Shown piece by piece: positions 1,327 to 64,000 of a stretch of DNA of 64,000 nucleotides. How positions within the stretch are numbered: position 1 is the first letter of the stretch; each line of letters starts with the position of its first letter. The notes beneath the pieces are model-generated. The model did no database searches. It was given only the letters and a program-made list of their open reading frames with translations, and was not told where the DNA came from. Source of the stretch: Eledone cirrhosa (taxonomy: Eukaryota); NCBI GenBank assembly GCA_964016885.1, contig OZ024744.1, forward strand, positions 94,984,001-95,048,000, written 5' to 3'. Both the position numbers and the translations under genes were made by a program.

Positions 1327-1667
1327 GGCTTAGTGGTTAGAGCATTGGGCTTGCAATCGAAAGGTTGTGAGTTCAATTCTCAGACCGGGTGATGTGTTGG
1401 TTCCTTGAGCAAGACACTTTATTTCACACTGCTCCAGTTTACTCAGCTGTAGAAATAAGATGATAGGGACTGGGGTCCCTATCATTCCACTGCAAAGTGG
1501 TCGTGGAGGTGCCACGGCAAAAAAGCACCCAGCACTCACTGTAAATGAGGTTGGTGTTAGGAAGGGCATCCAGCTGTAGAAATCAAGCCAGAATCAGTTC
1601 CCGTCCCATCCTTGCAAGCAGGGAAAAGCAGACGTAAAATGATGATGATGATGATGATGATGATGAT
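1327..1667 (+). mobile_element. tRNA-derived SINE (CORE-like centre, RTE-like tail, (GAT)n)
   Basis: A box tggcttagtgg, B box gagttcaattc, ccttgagcaagacactt domain. Copies at 6295-6786(-), 36727-37058, 52300-52552(-), 61289-61597. Confidence 0.85.
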
Positions 1668-1669
1668 GG

Positions 1670-1860
1670 TTGGTAAAAATCAGGTAGACCATAACCCACC
1701 AGAGTACTCAATACTTGAGGTAGTAGAGTGGGTAATATGAAAAGATTCAGGACCCTGACTTCTGAGCTCTGGCCCATTTGACAGCTAGATCCCAAAACAG
1801 TTCAGATCTAGATGTCGAAACGGCAGAAGCTCGGTCATCGGTTTCTTGATCATTCCGGTT
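1670..1860. mobile_element. Degenerate fold-back hammerhead-half element, family B
   Basis: Homologous to 17501-17693 (gtggg-taat...ggaccc-gac...gtcGAAAcggc). Confidence 0.6.
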
Positions 1861-1918
1861 AGCGTATCATGGTGCTATAGTAAAAAAAGCATTCTACATT
1901 GATTTTAACAAATATATA

Positions 1919-2742
1919 TCATCATCATCATCATCATCAACGTTTAACGTCCGTGTTCCACGCTTGCATGGGTTTGGACGGGGGTAGTCCCACTTGAGGC
2001 AAGAGTGATTGTCTTGCTCGCATAGGACTGTCTGGCAGGTTTTCTACAGTTGGATGCCCTTCCTAACACCAACCACATTTACAGTGTGGGTCTGGGAGGT
2101 TTTTACCGTGTTGCCTACACGGCCACATTACAGCGTGGACTGTGTGTTTTTTTGTCGTGACACCTACACGATCTCATTTGTTTCGGCCTCGATGGCGCGG
2201 CACCAACATAACTTTACATAGAACGGGGTGGTGTGGATCGGGTGGGGGTGGTGGTGGTGGGACGGGGTGTATTTTGTTAGAGATGCCTACTGGCTGGAGT
2301 AGGTTTTACTATATATTTAGGTAAGGCGGGTCTTCTCTGTTACTGAGTACCGCCAAAGGTCTCGGTCCAGTGACATTGTCTTGGAGAGGTGTAAGTGTGT
2401 GATGTCGGAGTTTATCAGCTCGTCCCAGGTTTTTCTAGGTCTGCCTATTCCGTGACTACCGTCTATCTTTATTGCCCTGCACTTTGTTATACAGCTATCG
2501 ACTTTCATGCGCATCACGTGTCCATACCAACGTAGCCTTCTCTCGAGTAAACAACATCTGATCCCTCTTATCTCTAATTTTTTCCTTAGTTCGTTTATGC
2601 TTTGCCGTTCACGTATATTACTGTTACACATCCAGCGGAGCATGCAAGCTTCGTTCCTCTCTAGTCTGCGTATATCCTCTGCACACAATGCCCAGGTCTC
2701 ACTGCCATGCAGCATTGCTGTTCGTATGCAGGCATCGTACAA
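1919..2742 (-). mobile_element. 5'-truncated RTE-clade LINE, family 1
   Basis: ORF ...LHGSETW...[12 protein letters not shown]...GRPRKTW, typical of an RTE ORF2 C-terminus; about 400-bp 3' UTR and (GAT)n tail. Confidence 0.9.
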
Positions 2743-2779
2743 GCGATATAGATATATATATGTGCGTGTATGTGTGGAT

Positions 2780-3108
2780 ATTTGTATATATATATATACA
2801 TTTGTATGTATATATATATATATTTGTATGTATATATATATATATTTGTATGTATATATATATATATTTGTATATATATATATATATTTGTATATATATA
2901 TATATATTTGTATGTATATATATATATATTTGTATATATATATATATATATATTTGTATGTATATATATATATATTTGTATGTATATATATATATATTTG
3001 TATATATATACATACAAATATATATATATATATACATACAAATATATATATATATATATATTTGTATATATATATATATATATTTGTACGTATATATATA
3101 TATATTTG

Positions 3109-3139
<31 letters not shown>

Positions 3140-3345
3140 ATGTATATATATATATTTGTATGTATATATATATATATATTTGTATGTATATATATATATA
3201 TATTTGTATGTATATATATATATATATTTGTATGTATATATATATATATATATTTGTATGTATATATATATATTTGTATGTATATATATATATTTGTATG
3301 TATATATATATATTTGTATGTATATCATATATTTATATATATTTA
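2780..3345. repeat. Compound (TA)n/TTTGTATG microsatellite
   Basis: Directly visible. Confidence 0.95.
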
Positions 3346-3437
3346 TGAAAAACAATGTATATAAAGATATATGTGTGTGTGTGTGTGTGTGAAAAGGAAA
3401 AAAGGAAAACAGTGCTCAATCAGGAAGAGAGTAAAAA

Positions 3438-3572
3438 TATATTACTAGTACAGATTAAAGTTTAAGCAAAGAATTTCTCCTTTCAACCTATATACGATCT
3501 TCAGAAGATCTCATATAGGGTGAAAGGCGAAATTCTTTGCTTAAACTTTAATCTGTACTAGTAGTAAATATT
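3438..3572. mobile_element. Fold-back element, family C, centred on a CTGAAGA box
   Basis: Arms tactagtacagattaaagtttaagcaaag... around gatcttcagaagatc; homologue at 52637-52770. Confidence 0.7.
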
Positions 3573-3989
3573 TGCTCTATAGGTTTAAATATATTTATAT
3601 ATATGGAGTAGAGAGTAAATGAAATGGGAAGAAACATAATAGTATCACTGATGATGTCACAGGTGTGTGATGAAAGAACTTTTATAGACTATATATATAT
3701 ATTTATATCTGTATTTTCAACCATTGGTCAATCAATGATAAACATTGATTACAAGCTAAATTAACTATGGAGATATAAAATATACAGAAGCGAAAACCAA
3801 TCCAAACCAAACAGTGAGTGTGTTCTACTATTATTTCTGGCAATATTAAAACAATATGACCCTCCCCAAATATAACAATGTATATATATCAAGCTCTCTT
3901 TGGATATTGGTCTTTGAATTTATTATTACTATATACATATATATAAAGGTGCTGGTCATCAACAGATACACAGCATTTGTTATCAATCA

Positions 3990-4025
<36 letters not shown>

Positions 4026-4108
4026 GTTATTCCGGGTTGAATCGGAGGTAACCACAGTAAGTAAGGTACTCAATACATTGCAGAGTATAAAAGTTTTAAT
4101 ATAGATGA

Positions 4109-4157
4109 GATTCTACAGGACTAGAACTGTTTCATTCTTTAGAAATCATCAGGAATC
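4109..4157 (-). ncRNA. Type I hammerhead ribozyme motif (inverted twin, sense to host pre-mRNA)
   Basis: Exact reverse complement of 4164-4212. Confidence 0.85.
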
Positions 4158-4163
4158 ACTGAT

Positions 4164-4212
4164 GATTCCTGATGATTTCTAAAGAATGAAACAGTTCTAG
4201 TCCTGTAGAATC
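4164..4212 (+). ncRNA. Type I hammerhead ribozyme motif
   Basis: gattc-CTGATGA-t.ttc(taaa)gaa.t-GAAA-cag(ttctagtc)ctg-TA-gaatc; all three stems pair. Confidence 0.85.
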
Positions 4213-4215
4213 TCA

Positions 4216-4257
<42 letters not shown>

Positions 4258-5155: not shown

Positions 5156-7014
5156 GGAATTTAGTAATATAAATAACTTTCTCGTTATCAAGTTATATTT
5201 CCATTCACACCAATGATGTTTCATTACCATATTTCTAATGAAAGATACTGCCTTTGATTTTAAAATAATTTTGAAAATAATCAAGAATTTTGAGGGATTT
5301 AGTAATATAATGTTCTCATTATTAAGCTGGTGATAGCTTAGCCTTTCATCCTGACAGGGTTGATGAAATAAAGTACCAGTAACATACTAGGGTCGATTTA
5401 ATCAACCTTCCCCTCTCCGAAAATTGTTGGTTTTGTGCCTAAATCAGAAACCATTATTAAGCTGGTATTTGGAACATAACAAAGATTCTTGCATAAAATT
5501 ATGATAGAAAGTTTCTTTTAGATAAATATAAACACTTTAACCCTTTCATTACCATATCTCTAATGAAAGACACTATCTTTGGCCTTCAAATAATTTTGAA
5601 AATAATCAAGAATTTGGAGGGATTTAGTAATATAGATAACTTTTTCATTATTAAGTTAGTGTTTGGAACATAACAAAAGTTCTTGTATAAAATTAGGATA
5701 AAAGCATTTTAGATAAATATAAACATTTTAAAACACAGCTTTGTATCGTAGAAGAAGGGGTGGCTTCTGGTAGTTTGGTATCAGAAGGATTAAATCAGCC
5801 CCAGTACTTGACTGGTATTTTATTTTAACAGTTCTTGAAGAATAAAAAGCAAAGCTGATCTAAGAAGGATTTGATCCCAGGACATAAAGGTCCCAAACTA
5901 AATACCACAAGATATTTTGTCTGATGCTCTAATGATTCTGCCAACCCAACATAATTCAATGATTAACCACAGCTAAGATCAACAATAACAGCACAAACAA
6001 TAGGAGAAAGGTAGTGTCCTCCTATGAAGGGAGGAATGTCCTCTTTGGTTAAGACTGATTATGAGCTTGGGTTGCATCTGGAAAGTTCTTCTCCAAGATA
6101 CAAGCATGGGCAAGATGTTTTTGTGGAAGACATGTATTTGCCCTTTCATCGTAGCCATACCTCTGTGTGCCACCAATATTGTCCAAGGTAAAGGCAAAAA
6201 CCAATACACCAGTGTCGTCGCGACTCACTTTTTCCAGCTGAGGCCACTGGAGTAACGTGAAATAAAAAATAAAGTGACTTGTTCAAGGACACAATCATCA
6301 TCATCATAATTTCATTTTACGTCCGCTTTTCCCTGCTTGCAAGGGTGGGACGGGAACTGATTCTGGCTTGATTTCTACAGTTGGATGCCCTTCCTAACAC
6401 CAACCTCATTTACAGTGAGTGGTGGGTGCTTTTTTTGCCGTGGCACCTCCACGACCACTTTACAGTGTGGGCTGGGTGCTTTTTTGCCGTGGCACCTCCA
6501 CGACCACTTTACAGTGTGGGCTGGGTGCTTTTTTGCCGTGGCACCTCCACGACCACTTTACAGTGTGGGCTGGGTGCTTTTTTGCCGTGGCACCTCCACG
6601 ACCACTTTGCAGTGGAATGATAGGGACCCCAGTCTCTATCATATCATTTCTACAGCTGAGTAAACTGGAGCAATGTGAAATAAAGTGTCTTGCTCAAGGA
6701 AACAACACATCACCCGGTCTGAGAATTGAACTCACAACCTTTCGATTGCCAGGCCAATGCTCTAACCACTAAGCCACGTGCCTCCAATATGCCGGGCAAA
6801 TCAGGAATCAAACTCATAACTTAATGATTGTGAACCCAACACCCTAACTACTAAGCCACATGCCTGCACTTGATCCCTCCTATCATTCTATAACAATTCA
6901 AACAACCAGATTGAGCTAAATTAAAGCCTTCTGTCAATAAATGATATTCACTTGAAAGATAAAAACAATATTGTTTAACAAAATCACAGATGCTCCTGTT
7001 TTAGTAGCAGTGAG

Positions 7015-17500: not shown

Positions 17501-17501
<1 letters not shown>

Positions 17502-17688
17502 CGGAAGAAATGTGGTAAGGAACCAGGTGGACCATAACGCACCAAAGTACTCAATATTTAGGGTAGTAGAGTGGGTAATAGGAACGAGTAGGACCCCGAC
17601 GGCTGAGCTCAAGCCGTTTCGACGGCTAATTCTGGACTGAATTACCCGTCGAAACGGCTTGAGCTCAGCCGTCGGGGTCCTACTCGTT

Positions 17689-17693
<5 letters not shown>
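17501..17693. mobile_element. Fold-back element, family B, with the 3' half of a hammerhead on each strand
   Basis: Arms 17578-17625/17646-17693; GAAA-cggc(ttgagctca)gccg-TC-ggggtcc; (TA)n on both sides. Relatives at 268-335, 1670-1860, 35555-35730, 36622-36727 and 53330-53465. Confidence 0.8.
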
Positions 17694-30689: not shown

Positions 30690-31983
30690 TGTAGTGATGG
30701 TAGTAGTAGTAGTATTAGTAGTGGTGGTGGTAGTGGTAGTAGTGGTAGTGGTGGTAGTGGTGGTGGTGGTAGTGGTGGTAGTAGTAGTAGTAGTACTAGT
30801 AGTGGTGGTGATGGTAGTGGTATGGTGGTGGTGGTGGTGGTAGTAGTAGTATTAGTAGTGGTGGTGGTAGTGATAGTAGTGGTGGTGGTGGTAGTAGTGG
30901 TGACAGTGGTGGTGGTAGTGATGGTGGTGGTGATGGTGGTGGTGGTGGTGGTAGTGATGGTGGTAGTGATGGTGGTAGTGGCAGTGGTAGTGATGGTGGT
31001 AGTGGCAGTGATAGTGGTGGTGGTAGTAGTAGTAGTATTAGTAGTGGTGGTGGTGGTATGGTCGTGGTAGTGGTGGTGGTGTTAGTGGTGGTGATAGTAG
31101 TAGTATTAGTAGTGGTGGTGGTGGTAGTGGTAGTAGTGGTATGGGTGTGGTTGTAGTGTTGGTAGAGGTGGTGGTGGTGGTAGTAGTAGTATTAGTAGTG
31201 GTGGTGGTAGTGGTAGTAGTGGTGGTATGGTGGTAGTGGTGGTGGTGGTAGTGGTGGTGCCACAGAAAGATTCTTTTTGCATACACATACAAACACACAC
31301 ACACACAGCCAAATACACATATACACACAACCAAATACACATATTCACACACATAGCCAAATACACACACACACGCAGCCAAACACACATATACACACAC
31401 GCAGCCAAACACACATATACACATACACAGCCAAATACACACATATACACACACAGCCAAACACACATATACACATACACACAGCGAAATACACATATAC
31501 ACACACACAGCCAAATACACATATATTCACACACACACACACACACAGCCAAATACACATATACATACACACACAACGAAACACACATACATACACACAC
31601 ACACGCAAACAAATACATACACACAAACACAAACATACACACACACACAAACATACATACACACACACAAACATTCACACATACACACACAAACATTCAC
31701 ACAAACACACAAACACATACACACACATCACACACTTAAACTTACACACATCACACACACATACACTCACATCACACACACACTTAAACATACACACACA
31801 AACACACACATACACAAACATACACATACACACACCCAATCAGCAAAAATGGTTAAATTTGATATTTATTGGTGGAAATGTCATCAAACGTAATAACTGT
31901 TGACAGGTGTACTGTAGAAAGTCGTTTTCTTATTAACACTAAAATGTCACTTCTACTACTACTACTACTACTACAGCAGCAGC

Positions 31984-32018
<35 letters not shown>

Positions 32019-32034
32019 CAGCAGTAGTAGTGGC

Positions 32035-32075
<41 letters not shown>

Positions 32076-32306
32076 CAGCAGCAGCTACTACTACTACTGC
32101 TACTACTACTACTACTGCTGCTACTGTTGCTACTACTACTACAGCTGCTACTACTGCTACTACTACCACTACTACTGCTGCTACTACTACTACTGCTGCT
32201 GCTACTGCTGCTACTACTGCTACTACTACTACTACTACTGCTGCTACTACTACTGCTACTATTACTGCTACTACTGCTGCTACTACTACTACTACTACTA
32301 CTGCTG

Positions 32307-35470: not shown

Positions 35471-36284
35471 AATTGGAAAAATGAGATGATGTAAATAAGA
35501 AACAATCTTTTTTTTTTCTTTTTTAGCAATTGTTGTATGTTCATATATATATATGAAGAGATTCAGAACCCCAACGACGGAGCTTCGGCTGTTTTGGCAG
35601 CTAGCGGTCAAAACAGCCAGAGCTCAACTGTCAGGGTCCTGAATCTCTTCATATTACCTACTCTACCACCCCAAGTATCGAGTACTCTGGTGGGTTATGT
35701 TCCACCTGGTATTTTACTACACCCTACCTGATATCATCATCATCATCATCATCACCGTTTTACATCCGTTCTTCCACGTTAGCATAGGTGACGGGTTGTC
35801 TAACCCATGCTAGCATGGAAGAACGGATGTAAATATATATATATATCAGAAACAGTTCCCGTATGAGCAAGACAAGGTCAGCCGACTAGGCACTGCCCAC
35901 AACAGGACAACCCATCTAACCCATGCTAGTGTGGAAGAATGGACGTAAAACGGTGATGATGATGGTGATATGTTGTTTACTTGTCCCCCTCGCCTTACGC
36001 GAATTCTGGCCCCAATAACTTTTTTTAGTTATTGCTCGCACCAACCTGAGGTATCTGATTTTTAATGCGATGAAATACCAATGATGGTTGGAAAATCACT
36101 GACGAAGGACTATTTTTATCATATGTAACCCATGTGCAAACCACGCAGTATTCTACTTTCTTCTCATGTTTTTTTATATATATATATATATAAGCAAAAG
36201 GGACATTTAATTTGTTGGTAATTCAACAAATATAAATGTTTATAACTGATTCAAAGCACTCAACAAATTTCTGGAGTAAATATT

Positions 36285-36551
36285 CAATGGTATTAAATAA
36301 ATGGAAACTATATTTATAAAACCATATTTATTCTATTATATATATTTCAAGGGTACCAAAACTTTGGTACACTCTCATCAGATAAAATACAAAGTTTGTT
36401 TTACAAATATTGACAGATCCAGGAAGGAGATCTTAACGGTTCAAGTTTTTCCACTATCCAGGAAAAACTGGTACCAAAGTTTTGGTACCCTTGAAATATA
36501 TATAATAGAATAAATATGGTTTTATAAATATAGTTTCCATTTATTTAATAT

Positions 36552-36556
<5 letters not shown>
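36285..36556. mobile_element. Inverted-repeat hammerhead element, family E
   Basis: Arms about 36285-36370 and 36471-36556, followed by (TA)n. Confidence 0.8.
36329..36389 (-). ncRNA. Type I minimal hammerhead motif
   Basis: tattttat-CTGATGA-gagtgtaccaaa..tttggtaccctt-GAAA-tatata-TA-atagaata. Confidence 0.8.
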
Positions 36557-36621
<65 letters not shown>

Positions 36622-37229
36622 AGGAACCCCGATGGCTGAGCTCAAGCCGTTTTGACGGCTAATTCTGGACGAAACGGCCTGAGCTCAGCCGCCGGGGTCC
36701 TACTCATTCCTATTACCCACTCTACTAGAGCATTGGCCTTGCAATCGAAAGGTTGTGAGTTCAATTCTCAGACCGGGTGATGTGTTGTTTCCTTGAGCAA
36801 GACACTTTATTTCACATTGCTCCAGTTTACTCAGCTGTAGAAATGAGATGATAGGGACTGGGGTCCCTATCATTCCACTGCAACGTGGTCGTGTAGGCAC
36901 CATGGAAAAAAAGCACCCAGCACTCACTGTAAATGAGGTTGGTGTTAGGAAGGGCATCCAGCTGTAGAAATCAAGCCAGCATCAGTTCCCGTCCCACCCT
37001 TGCAAGCAGGGAAAAGCGGACGTAAAAATGAAATGAAAAAAAATGAAATGAAATGAAATATATATATATATTATTTGTATTTTGTATATTATTTATTTAT
37101 TTATATTTTGTGTTTTATATTTTTATATTTTATTATTTATTTCCTTTGTTTATATTAGCCTGATGCCAACCAATGATTTGTGAGTGAATTTGATAGAACG
37201 GAAACCTTAGAAGAAGCCTGTTGTGTATG

Positions 37230-37775
<546 letters not shown>

Positions 37776-38224
37776 GAGGGTCAGTTTACTGACAATGCTT
37801 AGAGCAACTGATGACATTTGTTTATGTCCTACATAACAAAAATATGTCCTGCAGTATAGCATTTCAATAATGATGAGCAGCATATAACAAACTTAAAGTG
37901 TTGTTTGTCATCAGGAAGGGCATCGAACTATACAAAATGCTACTCCCTTTTGCCAACAAAAGACAAGATGGAGTAACAGATTAAGACCAGAAAGAAGAAG
38001 AGGCACAAAAAAGATTATATAGTCATTGAGGAGGTCACAAAATGTGTGACAAAAGAACTTTGACGAACTAACCATTAACTAGTAATAAAGATAAAGTGAA
38101 AAAGTTAAAATAATATTGAGTGTGTGTTTTTCTTTTATTTGTACTACTGGCAACATGGCCATCCCAAAATATAACAATATCAGTCTCAACACAGGATTTC
38201 ACATCAAGAATCTTACAGAACAAA

Positions 38225-38431
38225 TATGAGAGTTGGCTGAAAACTTCATAGGATGACTTTGAAAGAGTGATGCTAGAGCTGTGAAATCTTGCATGTAATG
38301 CATTAATTCCAACTCTTCTTATTAATAACTGTATTGTTTCTTTCCAGGGACTATGTTGAAAAATAAACCCCATTTGGTCATTCCATGAGAATATCTTGGT
38401 CAGTCTATGAACCATTCAACCGACCCTCATA
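38225..38431. mobile_element. Tc1/mariner-type MITE
   Basis: TA-bounded imperfect TIRs tatgagagttggctgaaaacttcatag / ctatgaaccattcaaccgaccctcata. Relatives near 16990, 26640-26960, 27410, 28280-28540, 43130-43460, 48340-48760 and 49310-49960. Confidence 0.72.
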
Positions 38432-39022
38432 CATAAACATTAATAAAATCCTTTTCATATATAACATATATGAAAAGGATTTTATATATATGTACATACA
38501 TGCACACACACACATACACTCACATACATACATACATACACACACATGCAAACACACATACATACACACATACACATATACACACATACATACACACACA
38601 AAAATCTATATAATGGGTTTCTTTTATGGTTTATGTCTACCAAGTCCATTGTTATATTTATATATATTTTTCTTTTCAATAATACTGAGAATATTATTGG
38701 ACCGTGATTAGTGTGACGTTAAATGTCAAATATATAAAACTCACAACATTTCTATGTCAGCACCTTTTCATTAACATACCAATACTGAGAATTAATCAGA
38801 TTAGGGGATAGATATAATGTAGCGAGTCATTTAGAAGGCCTACTAAGTATTATCTTCAAGCTGAAGCATATGTACAGTATGTCCCACCCCCTAGCCAACA
38901 CTGTAAAGTGGACATGTAAACGACACGGTGGGGGAACACCCAGCCCATACTGTAAAATGGACATGTATATATATATATACAAAGTGTTAAAACGATCAAA
39001 TTTTAGCTTAGAACATTTATTT

Positions 39023-39071
39023 GCTGACAATTGTTTCTTCCAGACAGAAGGAAGTTCAGAATCATCAGAGC
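39023..39071 (-). ncRNA. Type I minimal hammerhead motif
   Basis: gct-CTGATGA-ttc...gaa-GAAA-caattg-TC-agc; palindromic loop III. Confidence 0.72.
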
Positions 39072-39870
39072 CTAGGGAATGTCGAAACATGTGACTAGAA
39101 TCCTAGTCATTCAGAACATTTAGGGTACATAATAGTTGTTAGTGTCATTGACATCATGTGGAGAGTCAGGAGTTAAAAAGATAATTTGTAGATAAAAATG
39201 CATAAGATAATATACCTACAATAACAAGATGGCCAGTAATTCAGTGGAATTTGCATTTAACAAACAAACACCTATTGACTATAAACGACTCAAACTAATC
39301 TCATGGTTAATAGCTGTGAGTAACAAACAACATATACACATACATACGAACTACAACACAAAAACACTTGAATGAAAATCACCTATCCAACTCTATTACG
39401 TGCTTTACATTACACCTTACATAACAAATTCCTACATTATCACCACATGTCTCTCTAATAAATAGCACGCTATCTTAAACATTTATAACATGCTTTATAA
39501 TATGCTTTAACACCCCACACAACATATGTTTATTTCAACTGCATTATAACTCTTTCCTCATACATGCCTTATTGATTGTATTGACTCCTGAATTGTACAC
39601 CCATAACATTAACTGTTCTCCAATGTTAAGATATCTTATATCTTATGTCTATCCTATCCCACACTTTTCCTTGCTTATAACATTTTTGTTTGAACCTTTT
39701 CCTTATACCTCTTACACTTTCAACCTGTGCTGCCTGCAATTGTGTTCTCTCAAGCATAACACCTTGTTAACTCCTGACTCTCCACATGATGCCTTTGACA
39801 CTAACAACAATTATGTACCCTAAATGTTCTGAATGACTAGGATTTTAGTCACATGTTTCGACATTCCCTA

Positions 39871-39917
39871 TGCTCTGATGATTCCAGACTTCCCTCTGAA
39901 AGAAACAATTATCAGCA
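39871..39917 (+). ncRNA. Type I minimal hammerhead motif (mutated twin)
   Basis: tgct-CTGATGA-ttccaga...tctgaaa-GAAA-caatta-TC-agca. Confidence 0.65.
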
Positions 39918-40091
39918 AATAAATGTTCTAAACTAAAATTTGATCGTTTTAACATTTTGTATCTCGGCTCTGTAAAAAACTTGAAAATTTGCATTGAGCC
40001 TTTTGTCATACCAGTAACTGGCTAGTACTTAGTACTACCCCCCATATTTATAGTTATATTAAACATATATAAATATAAATATAAATATTAC

Positions 40092-40169: not shown

Positions 40170-40662
40170 AAAAGGTGAAGTTGGAAATACCACAGAAAAT
40201 ATATTTAAGGGTCTGTTTTTCTTTTTTCATCCTTTCTTTGATTCGTCAAAGTGACATTATTGAAAAGATGACATTATTGAAAAAATGAGAGGGACAATTC
40301 TTTAAAAATAAAGTTTTATAATGTATATAATGTATATAAAGTATTACCGGTTTCGATGTATTATTAAAATTCATCTTATCAAATGTTAAGTATTGAAATA
40401 AAAATTTAAAAATAATTAAACTAAAAATTAAAGATTTAAAATTAAAATCAAATATTTGAATAAGTTTTTTTCTCATCTTTCTTGCTCGAGCAAGAAAGAT
40501 GGGGAAAAAAAACTTACTCCAGCATTTGATTTTAATCTTTTAAAAGAATCGTCCCTCTCATTTTTTCAATAATGTCACTTTGACGAATCAAAGAAAGGAT
40601 AAAAAAAGAAAAACAGACCCTTAAATATATTTTCCGCGCTATTTCCAACTTCACCTTTTCTC
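40170..40662. mobile_element. Fold-back element, family G, with a degenerate U3-A8 hammerhead at 40343-40384(-)
   Basis: Outer arms about 130 bp, hairpin centre cttgctcgagcaag. Minus strand TTGATAA-gatg...catc-GAAA-ccgg-TA, but stem I has only 2 bp. Confidence 0.65.
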
Positions 40663-43588
40663 TATATCCACTGTTTTGTATAGAACCTTACTTCTCTTTT
40701 CTAATATATATATATATAATATATATATATATATTCTAGTGGACCTATGCCATCAATAATAACATCAACAGCATTAAATGGATTTAATTTTTTGAGTCTA
40801 AGATTGGTATGCCATATACACCAGGATTATCAGATGTATAAACAATCATACAAAACTGGGAAATTTGCATTTTTGATAAAGTTATGGTTTGCATAAGAGA
40901 AACCCTATAGTTCGTGTTGATTACTGACATGTGGAGGGATTACTGACAAGTGAAGTTAAGAATGATATTTTAATAATCTATTTCTAGGATGTAATTACAT
41001 AAATGTTCAACATATATGTACAAATGACATACAGGATTAAATATGTGAGAACTTTAGAGAAATAATATTTACAAGGACAAACGCAGGGTTAGAAAGTGAA
41101 CTTCTTATTGTAGCAATGTGACCGAGATAAGAAATGCATTGTGTATATGTTACAGATAGATATATCCCTTGAAAGCAGGGAAAGCGGACGTAAAATTATG
41201 ATGATGATATGATATATATATATATATATATTTATACAAATATGAAGCTATAAATTTAAAAAGTCTCATTCTTTCTCGTACCCTGAATTATATTTAGGCT
41301 CTAACATTTGAATAACATTTCCACTTGCTTCAGGTCAGAGAACAACATTTTTTTAATGGTGACATTTTCACATTTTCAGCATTGCTGCCAGCAAGCTATT
41401 TACGCTAGCCACATTCATAAAAACTGACACAGTAGATAGATATTTTGTGTATTTATATACAATTACGAAAAATATGAAATCCCAGTGGAAGGAAGCTGCA
41501 GTTGAGGAAGACCAAGGAAGATCGAGGAAGATCAAAGAAGACCTAGGCAGAGGTTGTGACAGCTGATCTCATATTGCTGAAGCTCAGAGAGGAGACAATG
41601 ATAGACTGCAAATGATTGGAGTGAACGCTGTGATGGAAAAGACCTAAGTAACGCATGCAAGCATGGAAAAATGGATATAAAATGATGATCACAGTGATCG
41701 TATCACTGGCCCGGCAGCCTCCATATAAACCCATATTTAGCTGTAACCCAGTAGGGATTACTGAACTAAATCTTTTATGTTCCTTACATCTGATGAAATT
41801 GCGAATTGCCTTGCCTCATAGTTTGATGACGTAAGCTGGCCATAGAAACACGTATTGTGTAATTGAGTAACAATAAAGGAATATATTGGAATCTGACCAT
41901 CTGTTTTCATTGAAGGATATATATATATAATTGTTTCTACTTTTGGCACAAGGCCAGCAATTACCCAGTGCATTACTGGTACTTCATTTTATCGACCCCT
42001 TAAGGATGAAAGGCAGAGTTAACCTCGGTGGGATTTGAAATCAGAATGGCACGGGCCGTAACTCTATGCATCAAAGCATGGCGTCCGACCCTCTACCGAT
42101 ACTGCCAATCCACCTATATATATATAATAGAGGCCTATCTGTATGTATAGTGTGTGTATAGTGTATATATATATATATGGAAATAATACACTATGAAGAT
42201 TTAAAAGGAATTGGATATAGTATGCAAGAGAGAAGATTGAAATAGTTTGGACGTGTGATGCATATGGAAGACAATAGTTGTATAAAGCAGTTCCAAGAAA
42301 TCTCAGTGGATGTGAAAGTCATAGAAGATGCAGACCTGGGAAGACATGGGATGAAGTAGAGAAGAAGACTCACTCACCAGTATTTTAAAAAAAAAATGTG
42401 AGTATGACTTGATCCATTAATGCCTGTCCCTTTCCATCATGGCTCCTTATTATCTATTCTCATGATCACAATATCCACACTGCTCTATCTGGGAATCACC
42501 CAGTTAAATCCCACCACACTTGTCATTCATCTGTGACATCACACATTTATTATCTCCCCTTACTTTGCTCCCTCCCTCCCATCTACCTTGTCAATTGTGG
42601 ATTGAATATATTCGACCCAGCTAAGGTCTAATGACATCTCTCATATGAAGGTGCAGTGAATAGGAGAGAGAGGGGTGGGGAGCGGGGGGTGGGGGTGGAA
42701 TTGATAGAGCTGAATAGCAGAAAGATGAAAGTGTATCAGTGAGGTATGTGTGTGTGTGTGTGTGTGTGCATGTGCATGTGTGTGTGTGTGTGTGTGTGTA
42801 TGTGTGTGTGTGAGTGCATGTGTGTGTATGTATGTGGGTGTGTGCATGTGTGTGTGTATGTATGTGTGAGTGTGTGTGTGCATGTGTACGTGTGTGTGGA
42901 TGTGTGTATGTGTGTGTATACAGGGGTGGACAGGGTGGCATGAGGTCAGCCAGTGGAAACATAACCTTTTAATTAACTATATTTCTGATGAAGTACATTG
43001 CCTGTGAGTTTCAATTAATTTTGAAAAATAAGCAAATATTTCGAGGAATTTCATAAAATAATTAAATTGTTAATTAATTAGTAAGCAGATGTTTTTATAT
43101 TTGGTATCAAAAGGGTTAGGAGAGAGACATAAGAGGGTCAGCTGAAAAGTTCATAAGCTGACCAAGATATTCTCATGGAATGACTAAATGAGGTTTATTT
43201 TTCAACATAGTCTCTAGAAAGAAACAATGCAGTTATTAATAAAAAGAGCTGAAATTAATGCATGCAAGATTTCACAGCTCTAGCATCATTCCTTCATAGG
43301 CTGACCAAGATACTCTCATGGAATAACCAAATGAGGTTTATTTTTTTCAACATAGTCTCTAGAAAGAAACAATGTACAGTTATTAATAAGAAGAGTTAAA
43401 ATTAATACATTGCATGCAAGATTTCACAGCCCTAGCATAAGTCCTTCATAGTCAGCCTATGAAGAAACAACACCACACATCCGGCCAGCCCTCTGTATCA
43501 AGAAAGGAAAATCTTTCTCAGAGAAGTTATTGGACTTTTCCAGACTTTAAGCTTTTTTTAGGAACTCTCATTGTTTTTATAGGTTTTG

Positions 43589-45290: not shown

Positions 45291-46038
45291 TGTATATTTA
45301 TATATATATATACATACATATACATATACATATATATATATACATACATATACATACATACACACATACATACATATGCACACATACACATATGTATATA
45401 CATATGTATATACTAGAAGTTGATGGAAACTGCGGACTGGGGAGACCCAAGATGACCTGGGATGAGGTGATAAAAGCCGACTTTACCCAATTACACCTCT
45501 CAAAGGCAATGACACACGACCATGACCTCTGGTGTCACGCAGTAATACAGAGTACCCGACCTCCCATGGGTACAAGCTGAAGCATATAGACAATATGCCC
45601 CCACACCACCCACCGCAAGGTGTCGTGGAGGTGCCACGGCAAAAAAGCACCCAGCCCACACTGTAAAGTGGACGTGTAGGCGCCACAAAACAGCACCCAG
45701 CACTCACTGTAAATGATGTTGGTGTTAGGAAGGGCATCCAGCTGTAGAAATCAAGCCAGATCAGTTCCTGTATGAGCAAAGCATGGTCAGCCGACCAGAC
45801 ACTGCCCACAACAGGACAACCCGTCTAACCCATGCTAGCGGGGAAGAACGGACGTAAAACGGGGATGATGATGATGATGATGATATACACGTATATATAT
45901 ATATATATATATATAGGAGGTGAGTTTTATTGTAGTACAATAAAGCAATGCAGATATCGGATAAGAAGCACTCTACAGTTTGTAGGACTGGAGTATACAT
46001 AATATATAAGATCAAAAGATGGTTAAAAGAGTTCCATG

Positions 46039-46109
46039 TATTTTATTATGCGCATTTCAAAAACAAATATCATCATGCAATAACATTTGTGTTTTCATCA
46101 GATAAAATA
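46039..46109 (-). ncRNA. Type I minimal hammerhead motif (inverted twin)
   Basis: Reverse complement of 46221-46291. Confidence 0.85.
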
Positions 46110-46220
46110 GGAGGACATGATATGAAGGTTAAAAAACACTTGTGGATAGTGCAGTTTTCATATGTTGATTTAAAACTGCACTATCCACAAGTGTTTTTTA
46201 ACCTTCATATCATGTCCTCC

Positions 46221-46291
46221 TATTTTATCTGATGAAAACACAAATGTTATTGCATGATGATATTTGTTTTTGAAATGCGCATAATAAAATA
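46221..46291 (+). ncRNA. Type I minimal hammerhead motif
   Basis: Identical to 126-196. Confidence 0.85.
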
Positions 46292-46321
46292 CATGGAACT
46301 CTTTTAACCATCTTTTGATCT

Positions 46322-46364
<43 letters not shown>

Positions 46365-47505: not shown

Positions 47506-50361
47506 TTTGTAATATCCCCTGCAGTACAACACAGAGATAAATTGGTCTGAATGCTGGTAGTTAAATATCTTGGATGTTGGCACATGCCATTGTTTGTAAA
47601 AGGGATATAAACTGCTTACTTTTTTTTATCTCAGTTGTCCTGTACTTTTGTGAATGTTCAGTTAAAAATTTTAGACTATTTTACTCCCCATCTTTCATTA
47701 ATTCCGCTTAAATGCTTAATCAATTATTAGTTAATTACTCAATAAATGAGACATTCTTTTTTCTCTTTCTCTCAAAATATGAGTTGTTCAGTCAACCTTA
47801 AGAGAAACTTTAAATGCAATCAACGTGGCCTTGTACAAAAAAAAAAAAAAATCTCTTTTATTTAGAATGGAAGAAATCACTTGATATTTTGATTTAATTC
47901 TCAGAAATGAACAACTTGGTTTGGCTAATAAACTTGCCCTTTAAATGGAATTAATAGGATGGAAATGTTGTTGCTAGTACTAAATTGATTGCAATTACAA
48001 ACCTAATAACTATATGAACTTAGACATCCTGCAATTTCGTCTCTCTCTCTCTTATTTTCTTTCTATCTCGGCATTTTCAAACTATTCTTATTTTGCCAGG
48101 AAATATGCATTATTTCCACGACGATATCCCCCTCATTTAAATGTGATTATTGACTTGCAACAATACAACTTGTAATGCCAGTGTCGTAAATTTGGCATAG
48201 TGTGTACATATTTGGCATATTTTACCATTTTTTACCATTTTTTATTTATTGAAGCAAAAAATAACAAAACAGAAAAAAAAATAGAAAAAAAACCATTTGT
48301 TTTGTTTTTATTAGCGTGTTTTGAGATTTCCTTGTTCTACGATGGTGGATTGAAAAGTTCTTATGCTGACTATGAAGTAGTGATGCAAGAGCTGTGAAAT
48401 TTTGCATGCATTAATTTCAACTCTTCAAGGGCGATGGATTGGCAGTATCGGTAGAGGGTCGGACGACATGCTTTGACGCATAGAATTACGGCCCTTGCCA
48501 TTCTGAGTTCAAATCCCACCGAGGTTAACTTTGCCTTTCATCCTTACGGGGTCGATAAAATAAAGTACCAGTAATGTACTGGATGATTGCTGGCCTTGTG
48601 CCAAAAAGTAGAAACAATTAATTTCAACTCTTCTTATTAATAACTGCATTGGTTCTTTACACTTTACAGGTACTATGTTGGAAAATAAACCTCATTTGGT
48701 CATTCCATGAGAGATTCTTGGTCAGCTTATGCTTATGAACTTTTCAGATGACCTTTGTATAAACATATATATATATATATATATAGATAAACTCCGACCT
48801 CACACACTTACACCTCACCAAGACAATGTCACTGGACCGAGACCTTTGGCGGTACTCAGTAATAGAGAAGACCCGCCTTACCTAAATACAAAGTAAAACC
48901 TACTACAGTCAGTAGGCATCTCTAACAAAATACACCCCCGTCCCACCACCCCCACCCCATCCACACCGCCCCCTTCTATGTAAAGTTATGTTGGTGCCAC
49001 ACCATCCAGGCCGAAACAAATGAGATCGTGTAGGTGTCACGACAAAAAAACACACAGTCCACGCTGTAATGTGGCCGTGTAGGCAACACGGTAAAAACCT
49101 CCCAGACCCACACTGTAAATGTGGTTGGTGTTAGGAAGGGCATCCAACTGTAGAAAACCTGCCAGACAGTCCTATGCGAGCAAGACAATCACTCTTGCCT
49201 CAAGTGGGAAAACCCCCGTCCAAACCCATGCAAGCGTGGAACACGGACGTTAAACGATGATGATGATGATGATGATGATATATATATATATATATATACA
49301 CACATATGTATGAGGGTCAGCTGGAAAATTCCTAGTCTGATTATGAAGGAGTGATACTAGAGCTGTGAAATCTTGCATGCATTAATTTAAACTCTTCTTA
49401 ATAATTGTTTCTACTTTTAGCACAAGGCCAGCAATTACCCCAGTGCATTACTGGTACTTTATTTTATCGACCCCATAAGGATGAAAGGCAAAGTTAACCT
49501 TGGCGGGATTTGAATTCAGATCATAAAGGGCCGTAACTCTATGCTCCAAAGCATGGCATCCAACCTTCTACCGATACTGCTAATCCACCGCTCAAATCCA
49601 CCTCTTCTTCTTAATAATGGTTTCTTATATAGGCACAAGGCCAGTAATTTGGGGGGAGGGGAAAGTCGATTAAATCGACTCCAGTGCGTGACTGGTACTT
49701 TATTTTATCGAACCCATAAGGATGAAAGGCAAAGTTAACCTCGGCGGGATTTGAACTCAGATCATAAAGGGCCGTAACTCTATGCTCCAAAGCATGGCAT
49801 CCAACCTTCTACCGATACTGCTAATCCACCGCTTGAATCCATCTCTTCTTCTTAATAATGCCATTGTTTCTGTACACTTTACAGGGACTCTGTTGAAAAA
49901 TAAACCTCATTTGGTCATTCCATGAGAGTATCTTGGTCAGCATGTGCACTTTTCAGCCAATCCTTGTAGCTCTTCAAGCATAAACACTTGGCTCTCTTGC
50001 AAACTTTTGGATCAAGTTTTCTGGAGTGGTTTTTTTTTTTCCCCCTTGAACCACAGAAGCCTGGTCAGTCAGCAATAATGACCCTTCAAGTTCCCTATGT
50101 ATCCAATCACTTAAACCAACTTAACCTGTGAGAATTAGCTTAGCAGACATAGCTCTGTTCAATCATCACCATCACCACCACCACCACCACCATTATATCA
50201 ATCATCAACATCACCTTCACCATCACCATCACCACCACCACCACCACCAGTTGTTGTGGTTATGATGATGATGATGAAAATGGTGGTGGTGGCGGTGGTG
50301 GTGGTGATGATAATGATGATGGTGGTGGTGGTGGTGGTGGTAGTGTAGGTTGTTGTCGTTA

Positions 50362-52250: not shown

Positions 52251-52636
52251 TATATATATATATCCATATATCCATGCCATATTTATATACATATATATAT
52301 CATCATTTTACGTCCGCTTTTCCCTGCTTGCAAGGGTGAGACGGGGACTGATTCTGGTTTGATTTCTACAGCTGGATGCCCTTCCTAACACCAACCTCAT
52401 TTACAGTGAGTGGTGGGTGCTTTTTTGCCGTGACACCTCCAAATGAGATGATAGGGACTGGGGTCCCTATCATCTCATTTCTACAGCTGAGTAAACTGGA
52501 GCAATGTGAAATAAAGTGTCTTACTCAAGGAAACAACACATCACCCGGTCTGAATAATAATAAATTTGAAGACTAAAATCCAAAGAGGTCTCGATAAGGA
52601 TAAATATATATCAAATATATAAGAACCGTAGAGCAA

Positions 52637-52770
52637 ATATTTATTAAAATAACATTAAAGTTTAAGCAAATAATCGCTGCTTTCACCTTTAACGAGATCT
52701 TCTGAAGATCCCGTTAAGGGTGAAAGCTGCGATTCTTTGCTTAAACTTTAATCTGTTATTTTAATAAATA
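52637..52770. mobile_element. Fold-back element, family C, with a hammerhead core
   Basis: Centre gatcttCTGAAGAt-ccc(gttaa)ggg-tGAAAgc...gcTT; the 5' strand of stem I is replaced by the inverted arm. Confidence 0.68.
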
Positions 52771-53490
52771 TATATATATATATCATCATCATCATCATCA
52801 TCATCATTTAACGTCCATCTTCCACGCTTGCATGGGTTTGGACGGGAGTTTTCCCACTTGAGGTAAGAGTGGTTGTCTTGCTCGCATAGGAGTGTCTGGC
52901 GGGTTTTCTACGGCTGGATGCCCTTCCTAACACCAACCACGTTTACAGTGTGGACTGGGAGGTTTTTACCGTGTTACCTACACGGCCACATTACAGCGTG
53001 GAGTGTGTGTTTTTTGGTCGTGACACCTACACGACCTCATTTGTTTCGAACTGGATGTTGTGGTACCAACATAACTTTACATTGAAAGGGGTGGTGTGGA
53101 TGGGGTGGGGGTAGTGGGATGGGGGTGTATTTTTGTTAGAGGTGCCTACTGACTGTAGTAGGTTTCACTTTGTACTTAGGTAAGGTGGGTCTTCTGTATT
53201 ACTGTGTAGCGCCAAAGATCTTGGTCCAGTGACATTGTCTTGGAGAGGTGTAAGTGTGTGAGGTCGGAATTTATTAAGTCATCCCAGGTTTTTTTGGGTC
53301 TGCCTACTATATATATATACATAAACAAAGAAGGTGTGGTAAGAAACCAGGTGGACCATAACACACCAGAGTACCCAATACTTAGGGTAATAGAGTGGGT
53401 AATAGGAAAAGTGTCAAGACCGTTTCGCCGGAGCTCAGCCATTGGGGTCCTGACTCTTTTCCTATATATATATATATACATATATAGACG

Positions 53491-60543: not shown

Positions 60544-60616
60544 GCCTCCGTGGCCCAATGGATAAGGCACCGGCCTCCTAAGCCGAGGATTGTGGGTTCG
60601 AGTCCCTTCGGAGGTA
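60544..60616 (+). tRNA. tRNA-Arg(CCT) gene or young pseudogene
   Basis: GCCTCCG/CGGAGGT acceptor stem, D loop AATGGATA, anticodon loop CTCCTAA, T loop TTCGAGT. Single mismatches in the D, anticodon and T stems. Confidence 0.8.
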
Positions 60617-62348: not shown

Positions 62349-62909
62349 GATATATATATATATATCCAGGCCGAAACAAATGAGGTCGTGTAGGTGTCAC
62401 AACAAAAAAACACACAGTCCACGCTGTAATGTGGCCGTATAGGTAACACGGTAAAAACCTCCCAGCCCCACACTGTAAATGTGGTTGGTGTTAGGAAGGG
62501 CATCCAGCCATAGAAAACACGCCAGATAGTCCTATGCGAGCAATGACAACCACTCTTGCCTCAAGTGGGAAAACTCCCGTCCAAACCCATGCAAGCGTGG
62601 AACATGGACGTTAAACGATGATGATGATGATGATGATGTTGATGATATATACGTATATACATATATATATTTCCAAGGGGTCCGGGTAAATTTTTCGATC
62701 ATATATTATTATTTGTTTGACCCGAATAGCTTGCTCGCTTCTATGGCTTTGCGGTTAATGGTTTAACCATCGTCTCAGTGCGTTTGGCCTTTTTAACATA
62801 AGTTTATTGCTCTAGTTCACTCGTATCTATCGAGCGCTTGCCACACAATTTGGAAGTTGTTTTTCGCTAATTTCCAATAGCCGAAATGCGATACTCACTA
62901 ATTTATATT

Positions 62910-62967
<58 letters not shown>

Positions 62968-63452: not shown

Positions 63453-63454
<2 letters not shown>

Positions 63455-63643
63455 TTGTTATATTTTGGGAGGGTCATGTTGCCAATAAAAACACATGCAC
63501 CTGTTGGTTTTCACTTCAATTTATTATAAGTTTCCGGTTGGTTGGTTTGATAACTGGAACCAACTGGAAACATAATAAATTGAAGTGAAATTCAACAGGT
63601 GCATGTGTTTTTATTGACAACATGACTCTCCCAAAGTATAACA
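63453..63643. mobile_element. Fold-back element, family H
   Basis: Imperfect arms of about 90 bp; the central hairpin ccggttggtt...aaccaactgg is followed by GAAA; the end motif atgaccctccccaa.tataacaa also occurs at about 970 and 3855. Confidence 0.65.
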
Positions 63644-64000
63644 AAATCTGTTTCAACACACGTTTACAGATAAGAAATCTCGCAAAACAAATTCAAAAAC
63701 GAATTATATATATATATACAGGGTCGTGTCCTCCCAAAATGTATACACACTTTGATTAGAATGCTGAAGTATGTATACATTTTGGGGGGACACCCTATAA
63801 ACACATAGGCACACACACACAAAACTCACACACACACACACAAAACCCACACACACATATATTTAATTTCAAAGTGAATAGACCAGAACATTTTTCTTTG
63901 AGAGTTCCTTATACTCTGAAGAAGGGAATTTTTAAGTCCCAAAATATTAGGATAAAAGAAACAACAACAAAAACCTCCCCAAAGATTACCAGGTAACTAA

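Follow-up and report, generated by a model that had tools for sequence, protein, structure and literature searches.

The fold-back elements that occupy (TA)n runs in the window (the whole 64,000-nucleotide stretch of DNA that was analyzed) are best read as head-to-head insertions of 5′-truncated Penelope-like elements (PLEs), in which the ends belonging to the Hydra clade lie just 5′ of small hairpins that, judging from their sequence, probably position the reverse transcriptase (RT) on the RNA. The insertions comprise six families of the Hydra clade, one of the Neptune/Nematis type and one without clade assignment. Insertions of this kind are already known; what is new for this known clade, and can be tested, is that a duplicated hairpin marks both ends.

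Insertions in the window

All 13 loci listed by the sequence-only reading proved to be real, and each matches PLE 3′ ends. They represent eight families, to which the letters A–H were assigned in the follow-up analysis. The positions of the loci held, but several tails (in B, E, F, G and H) run beyond the limits that had been given for them.

The layout proposed for these elements, (TA)n – tail – palindrome – (TA)n, was confirmed at 45916–46331, a family A insertion composed of a head-to-head pair of 5′-truncated Hydra-PLE 3′ ends; the parent with both RT and endonuclease (EN) is found at L031. The insertion has two inverted arms and an 83-nt tail (45916–45998, minus strand), which is the segment between the internal and the terminal end. 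The tail contains hairpin 1 (45967–45994, minus; ACUC…UA-bulge…GAGU-GCU), located a few nt away from the internal end on its 3′ side, the tailed arm carries a minimal type I hammerhead with a palindromic helix III (46039–46109, minus), and the same hammerhead is present in the inverted arm (46221–46291, plus). The element is bordered by (TA)n at its terminal end (45892–45915) and at its internal end (46329–46358).

A second family A insertion (1–241, locus L287; hammerhead at 126–196, plus) is clipped by the window edge and has its tail outside the window. Family B is represented by a tailed insertion at 52553–52771 and by an older, B-like one (approx. 80% identity) at 3428–3604, and in both of them the hammerhead core was created by the junction, that at 52553–52771 being canonical. 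The family C insertion (4025–4222) carries hammerheads on both strands (4109–4157, minus; 4164–4212, plus) and hairpin 1 at 4065–4086 (minus). Four loci belong to family D or resemble it: 17501–17693, with the 3′ half of a hammerhead on both strands and hairpin 1 at 17546–17572 (minus); 36620–36727, with an interrupted tail; 35555–35730, which is D-like and older, with a decayed half hammerhead and hairpin 1 at 35660–35686 (plus); and 53330–53465, a D-like tail with a short arm. The tailed insertions of families E (36195–36556; hammerhead at 36329–36389, minus) and F (38977–40091; decayed hammerheads on both strands) contain hairpin 1 at 36255–36277 (minus) and 39967–40001 (plus), respectively. 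The family G insertion (40170–40704) has a 42-nt tail, a (GA)n run at its internal end and a minimal hammerhead of the U3-A8 type (40345–40382, minus). Finally, the family H insertion (63453–63704), whose parent is of the Neptune/Nematis type, has no remaining hammerhead and no Hydra hairpin.

Several further sequences were noted in the window. A tail-like stretch at 62670–62911, absent from the earlier list, ends at (TA)n and contains a hairpin (62809–62838, plus); it probably represents another Hydra family. Decayed D-like, B-like and H-like PLE ends, likewise additional to that list, occur at 270–318, 1671–1840, 3887–3945 and 37999–38226, and at 3648–3680 (plus) a TA run follows a lone minimal hammerhead core of the H-like type. 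Right after the left arm of the element at 3438 there is a motif resembling hairpin 2 (3411–3432, minus), as would be seen after deletion of the tail that separates the two sites. The highest Rfam scores came from trinucleotide-repeat fold-back arrays (31931–32216 and 50154–50361; GTA/TAC and CAC/GTG), in which, to the extent examined, no relation to PLEs was seen. The tRNA-like Rfam matches at 60544–60616 (well over the gathering score), 1326–1383 and 6715–6778 are probably SINE heads. A generic search of the window for inverted repeats was swamped by TA runs.

Hammerhead ribozymes

The expectation that hammerheads would be enriched over shuffled sequence was borne out: a strict type I descriptor recovered six complete type I folds in the window and none in each of 100 block-wise dinucleotide shuffles. 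Rfam gives no support, since hammerheads were among none of the 98 hits in the window at E≤1. The statement that a full or half hammerhead is present in every locus needs correction at 63453–63643, which has none; in the family H parent the hammerhead sits upstream of the point at which this copy is truncated.

The cores differ between families. Parents of family B (L252, L279 and L280) have CAGAAGA, with A at position 4, and a helix I extended with an internal loop, and constitute a candidate ribozyme; the canonical CUGAAGA of this family arises at the palindrome junction. The parental core of family D is UUGAGAA (U3-A8) in five of the eight copies that reach the core, and that of family G is UUGAUAA, with a helix I of only 2 bp. 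The U3-A8 variant has already been published (PMC4209133). The palindromes, their (TA)n flanks and the minimal type I hammerheads are thus real as sequence features, and self-cleavage is predicted.

Coding parents and clade assignment

Seven families (A, B, C, D, E, F and H) run into an open reading frame (ORF) encoding RT and/or GIY-YIG EN elsewhere in the genome, which upholds the proposed PLE origin and contradicts the description of these seven as non-autonomous. Besides the family A parent, such loci are L279 and L280 (B), L236 and L332 (D), L234 (E), L238 (F) and L240 (H). In family C, an open 713-aa ORF is present in all four full copies that were fetched (L329, L330, L333 and L334), and full copies (L329–L334) have a 3′ UTR of approx. 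2.5 kb, largely TG/TA microsatellite. Such microsatellite is itself a target for other Hydra families (family D inside the UTR of F, L155).

The family C ORF is a single frame in which RT is followed by a C-terminal GIY-YIG EN, and the same RT and EN order was seen in the parents of A, B, D, E and F. We identified RWR and DKT in B, C and D, RWR and DKI in E, and RW in F; the N-terminal motif is broken in the sole A-type copy seen (L237). The EN translations of A, B, C, D and E share a CxCX5C linker, the absence of CCHH, and CxxC and CxH around the conserved E and N, and the EN of family F is known only from a tblastn match. A hammerhead is present in the pseudo-LTR (pLTR) of families A–F, with variant cores in B and D. 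TA adjoins 432 of 458 classed ends, a figure inflated by a test window that takes in the element's own TA-rich end. No Pfam family exceeded the cut-off on the parent ORFs (GIY-YIG, E 0.13), and the RT and EN calls therefore rest on motifs and homology. Full-length unnamed homologues number 1408.

By the published clade motifs, A–F are Hydra-clade PLEs. Their RTs form one clade with a support of 100/100, apart from metagenome relatives, in a tree built of sequences from this genome and from metagenomes, without labelled Hydra references or outgroups. Neptune, the initial clade guess, was dropped on the definition of the Hydra clade. Family H parents (L240 and L241) have a CX4CxxC linker (of the CX2-5CxxC type) and CCHH in the EN, and are by these motifs Neptune/Nematis-type, the two clades being indistinguishable here.

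Since blastn detected no similarity between the 3′ ends of the eight families, they looked unrelated; the earlier view of eight unrelated families is correct for DNA similarity and incorrect for the RTs of A–F. Each family was abundant in the 3.0-Gb genome, yielding between 194 and 4172 first-look candidates, with 40 scored per search. A DNA search with the family C tail alone found nothing. An intron considered upstream of the family E ORF proved unnecessary.

A bulged hairpin present in two copies

The Hydra pLTRs contain two copies of a bulged hairpin, RCWC-Y…R-UH-GWGY-VCU, which show compensatory pairs and lie 70–90 nt apart. The stem of hairpin 1 (RCUC…GAGY) opens all six Hydra tails and is separated by a few bases from the internal end, on its 3′ side. 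In read-through copies (those in which the pLTR continues to the start codon) of A, B and E, hairpin 2 follows the terminal end by a few bases; it was then predicted for C and D and recovered there with patterns that required only two G/C bases past the tail end.

In family C the pattern gave 239 matches, most of those listed reading into the same sequence, and hairpin 2 took the compensatory form GCAC-5-GUGC in 12 of 19 loci examined. Family D gave nine matches at six places, with GCUC-14-GAGC at four of the six. Hairpin 2 was not seen in family F, for which the fetched loci included no read-through copy.

The position of hairpin 2, about 25–70 nt upstream of the start codon, would also suit a 5′-UTR element with a role in promoter activity or translation, whose adjacency to the ends is incidental. 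We give this explanation hardly any credence, as it leaves unexplained the pile-up of ends before both copies in families that differ in hairpin spacing. Hairpin 1 was also considered as a coding feature and rejected, because its half-site spacings are not frame-preserving and translation starts further downstream. From sequence and position, the hairpins likely function at the start sites of reverse transcription; if they set both starts, it is the spacing of the hairpins that defines the PLE 'tail'.

Ends and their pairing

In the Hydra families the ends of the elements fall just before one or the other copy of the hairpin. Among 506 distinct 3′ ends scored in the fetched loci, 438 stop just before a hairpin (hairpin 1 in 212 cases, hairpin 2 in 226); the others are 20 tail ends of family F, eight read-through ends and 40 unclassed ends. 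Ends were accepted from −14 to +3 relative to the hairpin, a window made wide because TA runs mimic the TA-rich ends of the element itself, and C and D loci chosen for read-through were left out. TA microhomology blurs the exact ends, and most queries contained the tail, so that terminal ends are enriched by design. Of the unclassed ends, 21 are family B ends at +31 to +36, which we read as alignment run-on into TA.

The pairing of the ends is equally regular. Head-to-head pairs consist of one internal and one terminal end in 140 of 165 cases, of two terminal ends in three and of two internal ends in one, the other 21 having unclassed or read-through ends. In a search with a tail-less family B query, a tail was present on one side only in all 30 loci listed (four of them duplicates). 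Moreover, the two arms of one insertion share private variants in A, C and D (0/1000 permutations) and E (1/1000), a sharing that was not significant in B (74/1000) or F.

These data bear on the idea that the hairpins mark RNA 3′-end formation, with cleavage or termination just upstream and RT beginning at both types of RNA end. Such a process predicts the same positions as twin priming, and in Anolis the ends of RNA-seq reads coincide with RT start sites (PMC11167929). Two RNA species should, however, pair at random, whereas 140 of the 165 pairs are one of each, and the private variants common to both arms also speak against it; we consider this explanation improbable.

Junctions and arms

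While the 3′ ends are common, the centre of the palindrome differs from copy to copy: we counted 22 distinct anchor distances in 25 family A pairs, 14 in 32 C pairs and 23 in 37 D pairs. Such variation is what separate truncation events, one per insertion, would produce. The inverted 5′-truncated copies that the earlier reading had named as frequent in PLEs are supported here, in the form of head-to-head truncated 3′ ends.

Variable junctions do not fit a dense population of non-autonomous ribozyme hairpins, amplified as fixed units by PLE proteins, as the palindromes had first been interpreted. The recurrence of one junction in family B (also found in four of 30 loci from a search that did not select for the junction), the lack of an ORF linked to family G and the tandem units derived from family C (L294) are what such amplification could produce. 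Nevertheless, the recurrent B centre is found with both alternatives of its middle base, as a microhomology hot spot would predict, and the arms of seven families lead to parents coding for RT or GIY-YIG EN, making fixed units already unlikely for A–F and H. We regard amplification of fixed units as very improbable. The warning that a repeat finder would mislabel these elements as MITEs is justified, the MITE-like palindromes being PLE copies; family G aside, we found neither the uniform length and fixed centre nor the missing coding parent or transposase parent that would define MITEs or fixed units.

The tail-less arm is sometimes far the longer of the two, measuring approx. 880 nt against approx. 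300 nt for the tailed arm in L011, and comprising the whole element against approx. 170 nt plus tail in L288; neither arm is therefore a simple copy of the other. Arms extend upstream past the predicted hammerhead cleavage site, which fits an uncleaved template.

A search for empty sites within the fetched loci gave three hits in 165, of which two were same-locus artefacts and one was usable. This single paralogous site contains a TA run of 40–57 nt, showing that there TA predates the insertion. In the comparison with public contigs, the flanks were repetitive and the contigs broke at TA. A-like sequence was also covered in sequencing runs X6 and X7 of other organisms.

Hairpin conservation beyond this genome

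Scanning metagenomes with the RT core yielded 79 loci with 48 hammerheads, of which 18 read through to an ORF start and fell into 13 clusters. Both hairpins were present in 11 of the 13 read-through pLTR clusters and at least one in all 13, compared with both in 0/3900 and one in 200/3900 shuffled sequences. In 18 comparisons of metagenome 3′ copies, seven stop 1–8 nt before a hairpin, four are contig ends and seven are uninformative or ill-fitting; L349 and L351 diverge between the two hairpins, which goes against the rule that ends fall at a hairpin. The motif is also contained in published Hydra consensuses (twice in Hydra-1_Ajap, and in Hydra-2_Amil and Hydra-2_Ajap; PMC8557442 supplement).

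The 35 hairpins compared have a 4-bp stem, a two-base U-H bulge on the 3′ side (34/35), an upper stem and a loop of 5 to 38 nt. Pair 1 is G-C in 31 and A-U in four, pair 3 is U-A in 34 and A-U in one, and pairs 2 and 4 are invariant; across the bulge, the first pair of the upper stem is C-G in 21 and U-A in 12 of 34. Most of the metagenome hairpins come from a few related lineages, and these covariation counts are therefore not independent events. Predicted folding energies are weak (−1.7 to −6.8 kcal/mol), and hairpin 2 of family C has no upper stem.

The core GCUC…GAGCAC is also conserved in primary sequence, which is compatible with recognition of DNA. The motif could then act as DNA or single-stranded cDNA, GIY-YIG nicking upstream of it to resolve a fold-back or self-primed intermediate whose arms are trimmed at site 1 and site 2. 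In favor of this explanation, the tail has been ascribed to EN-mediated resolution (PMC8557442), the Penelope EN needed the tail to cut a plasmid (as recounted in PMC11167929) and self-priming on an antisense template has been proposed (PMC3846280). The TA-rich character of both ends, like that of the target, and the variants shared between arms would suit a fold-back as well. On the other hand, a loop of such variable length and covariation across a 2-nt bulge are unlike a duplex binding site, and an extra trimming step would be needed where the tailed arm is shorter than the tail-less one (L011 and L288). We therefore consider action at the DNA level unlikely, if still worth weighing.

The twin hairpin was not found in searches of an open-access literature library. 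In PMC8557442, the word 'hairpin' has no hits in the main text and 'stem-loop' has none in the supplement.

Proposed mechanism

The simplest reading of these observations, and the one we moderately favor, is twin priming on one transcript, in which the hairpin immediately 3′ of each start determines that start. The GIY-YIG domain would nick both strands of a (TA)n run, and the protein, possibly as a dimer, would bind both hairpins of an uncleaved transcript, within its read-through 5′ UTR. With the help of short TA-like matches, the two target strands would then prime at different sites, one immediately 5′ of hairpin 1 and one immediately 5′ of hairpin 2. Both cDNAs would usually end early, near the hammerhead, and be joined through microhomology. 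In the resulting palindrome, the longer end would retain hairpin 1 as its 'tail', hairpin 2 never being copied. In vitro, a Poseidon PLE extended both nicked strands from two internal, tail-bounding sites on uncleaved RNA (PMC11167929).

More tentatively, with a chance that we put slightly below even, the two hairpins of each transcript may be a clade-wide signal that loads two RT-EN molecules, which prime opposite strands of the (TA)n run at two fixed sites, with the (TC)n of family G produced by telomerase-like repeat addition. If so, loading by two hairpins would account at once for the tail of PLEs and for their fold-back insertions, and the hairpin would be the first defined cis-element for PLE initiation, loosely comparable to the template-bounding element of telomerase RNA.

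Family G and a tandem derivative of family C

Copies of family G share only approx. 700 nt, and no ORF was linked to them in eight long stretches; the family may be non-autonomous. An RT beside G in L243 was rejected as G's own, being of the family C type and absent from other G copies.

Inspection by eye of 19 scored internal-end lines of this family (L184–L208; the window example is the left flank of 40170) showed that three carry the tail. A (TC)n run of at least approx. 16 nt, mostly followed by (TA)n, is present at 13 of the 16 internal ends and at none of the 15 tail ends. The template of family G finishes in TCTC at the internal end, and slippage at priming is a likely source of the run; a compound target is possible as well. 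The variable (TC)n/(GA)n runs at internal ends may possibly reflect telomerase-like repeat addition at priming. A (GA)n run also occurs at the family H copy at 63453, and similar runs are present in some C-like copies (L013, L149 and L168).

Locus L294 (G000:C1:67879444-67882474) consists of three tandem units of approx. 221 nt, each with the family C hammerhead, both hairpins and the first codons, and by its sequence is a retrozyme-like non-autonomous derivative of C. Tandem direct monomers, each with a hammerhead, as in retrozymes, were found in L294 only and not in the window. A similar spacing of 211 nt was noted at C3:36232137/36232348.

Significance and comparison with known systems

Fold-back hammerhead elements are by themselves ordinary. 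How PLEs, the sister group of telomerase RTs, choose internal starts and acquire tails and inverted ends is named as an open question in PMC8557442 and PMC11167929. A precise target for mutagenesis is now available in the conserved hairpin, which is duplicated and keeps a fixed distance from both ends. Family C supplies natural open-ORF copies suited to an in vitro assay, such as G000:C1:154871200-154877700, whose ORF occupies 1583–3721 of that stretch. For curators, the motif provides a rule for the boundaries of Hydra elements, and abundant MITE-like palindromes in such genomes can be recognized as retroelement stumps.

Small RNA structures also place RT on its template in other systems, namely the 3′ stem-loops of stringent LINEs, the R2 3′ UTR and the template-boundary element of telomerase. 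The Hydra hairpin departs from these in three ways: it occurs twice, it is situated 3′ of the start site, and synthesis from that site leaves it uncopied.

Families A–F resemble the Hydra clade as described in Craig et al. 2021 (PMC8557442) in having RW[KR], DKT, a CxCX5C linker without CCHH, CxxC and CxH around conserved E and N, a (TA)n target, a minimal hammerhead and an ORF of approx. 710 aa; a family from Octopus bimaculoides, Hydra-1_Obim, is listed in the supplement of that paper. They differ from the published description in that at least six families coexist in this one genome, in that 3′ UTRs of approx. 1–2.5 kb make the units longer than the '<3 kb' given there, and in their variant cores, which are of the U3-A8 type in D and have A at position 4 in B.

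Known PLE insertions have been described as an inverted 5′-truncated copy plus tail (PMC8557442), with the tail on one of the inverted pLTRs (PMC3846280) and with opposite-strand hammerhead pairs 100–700 bp apart (PMC4209133). The insertions reported here share with them the head-to-head palindrome, the single tailed arm, the paired hammerheads on opposite strands and the U3-A8 variant. They differ in that Hydra-family tails measure 70–130 nt instead of 30–40 nt, and in that both tail borders coincide with a repeated structured motif.

The element PAc, a Poseidon of Anolis carolinensis (Frangieh et al. 2024, PMC11167929), extends both strands on an uncleaved template and uses two tail-bounding internal sites, of which there appear to be counterparts here. 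The PAc starts are located within one AC-rich stem-loop inside the ORF; those proposed here belong to the 5′ UTR, where a separate copy of the clade-wide bulged hairpin directly follows each of them on the 3′ side. Non-LTR retrozymes (bioRxiv 10.64898/2026.07.22.740005) likewise contain PLE-derived type I hammerheads, and L294 is such a tandem array; the window elements, in contrast, are inverted pairs with variable junctions and not tandem monomers.
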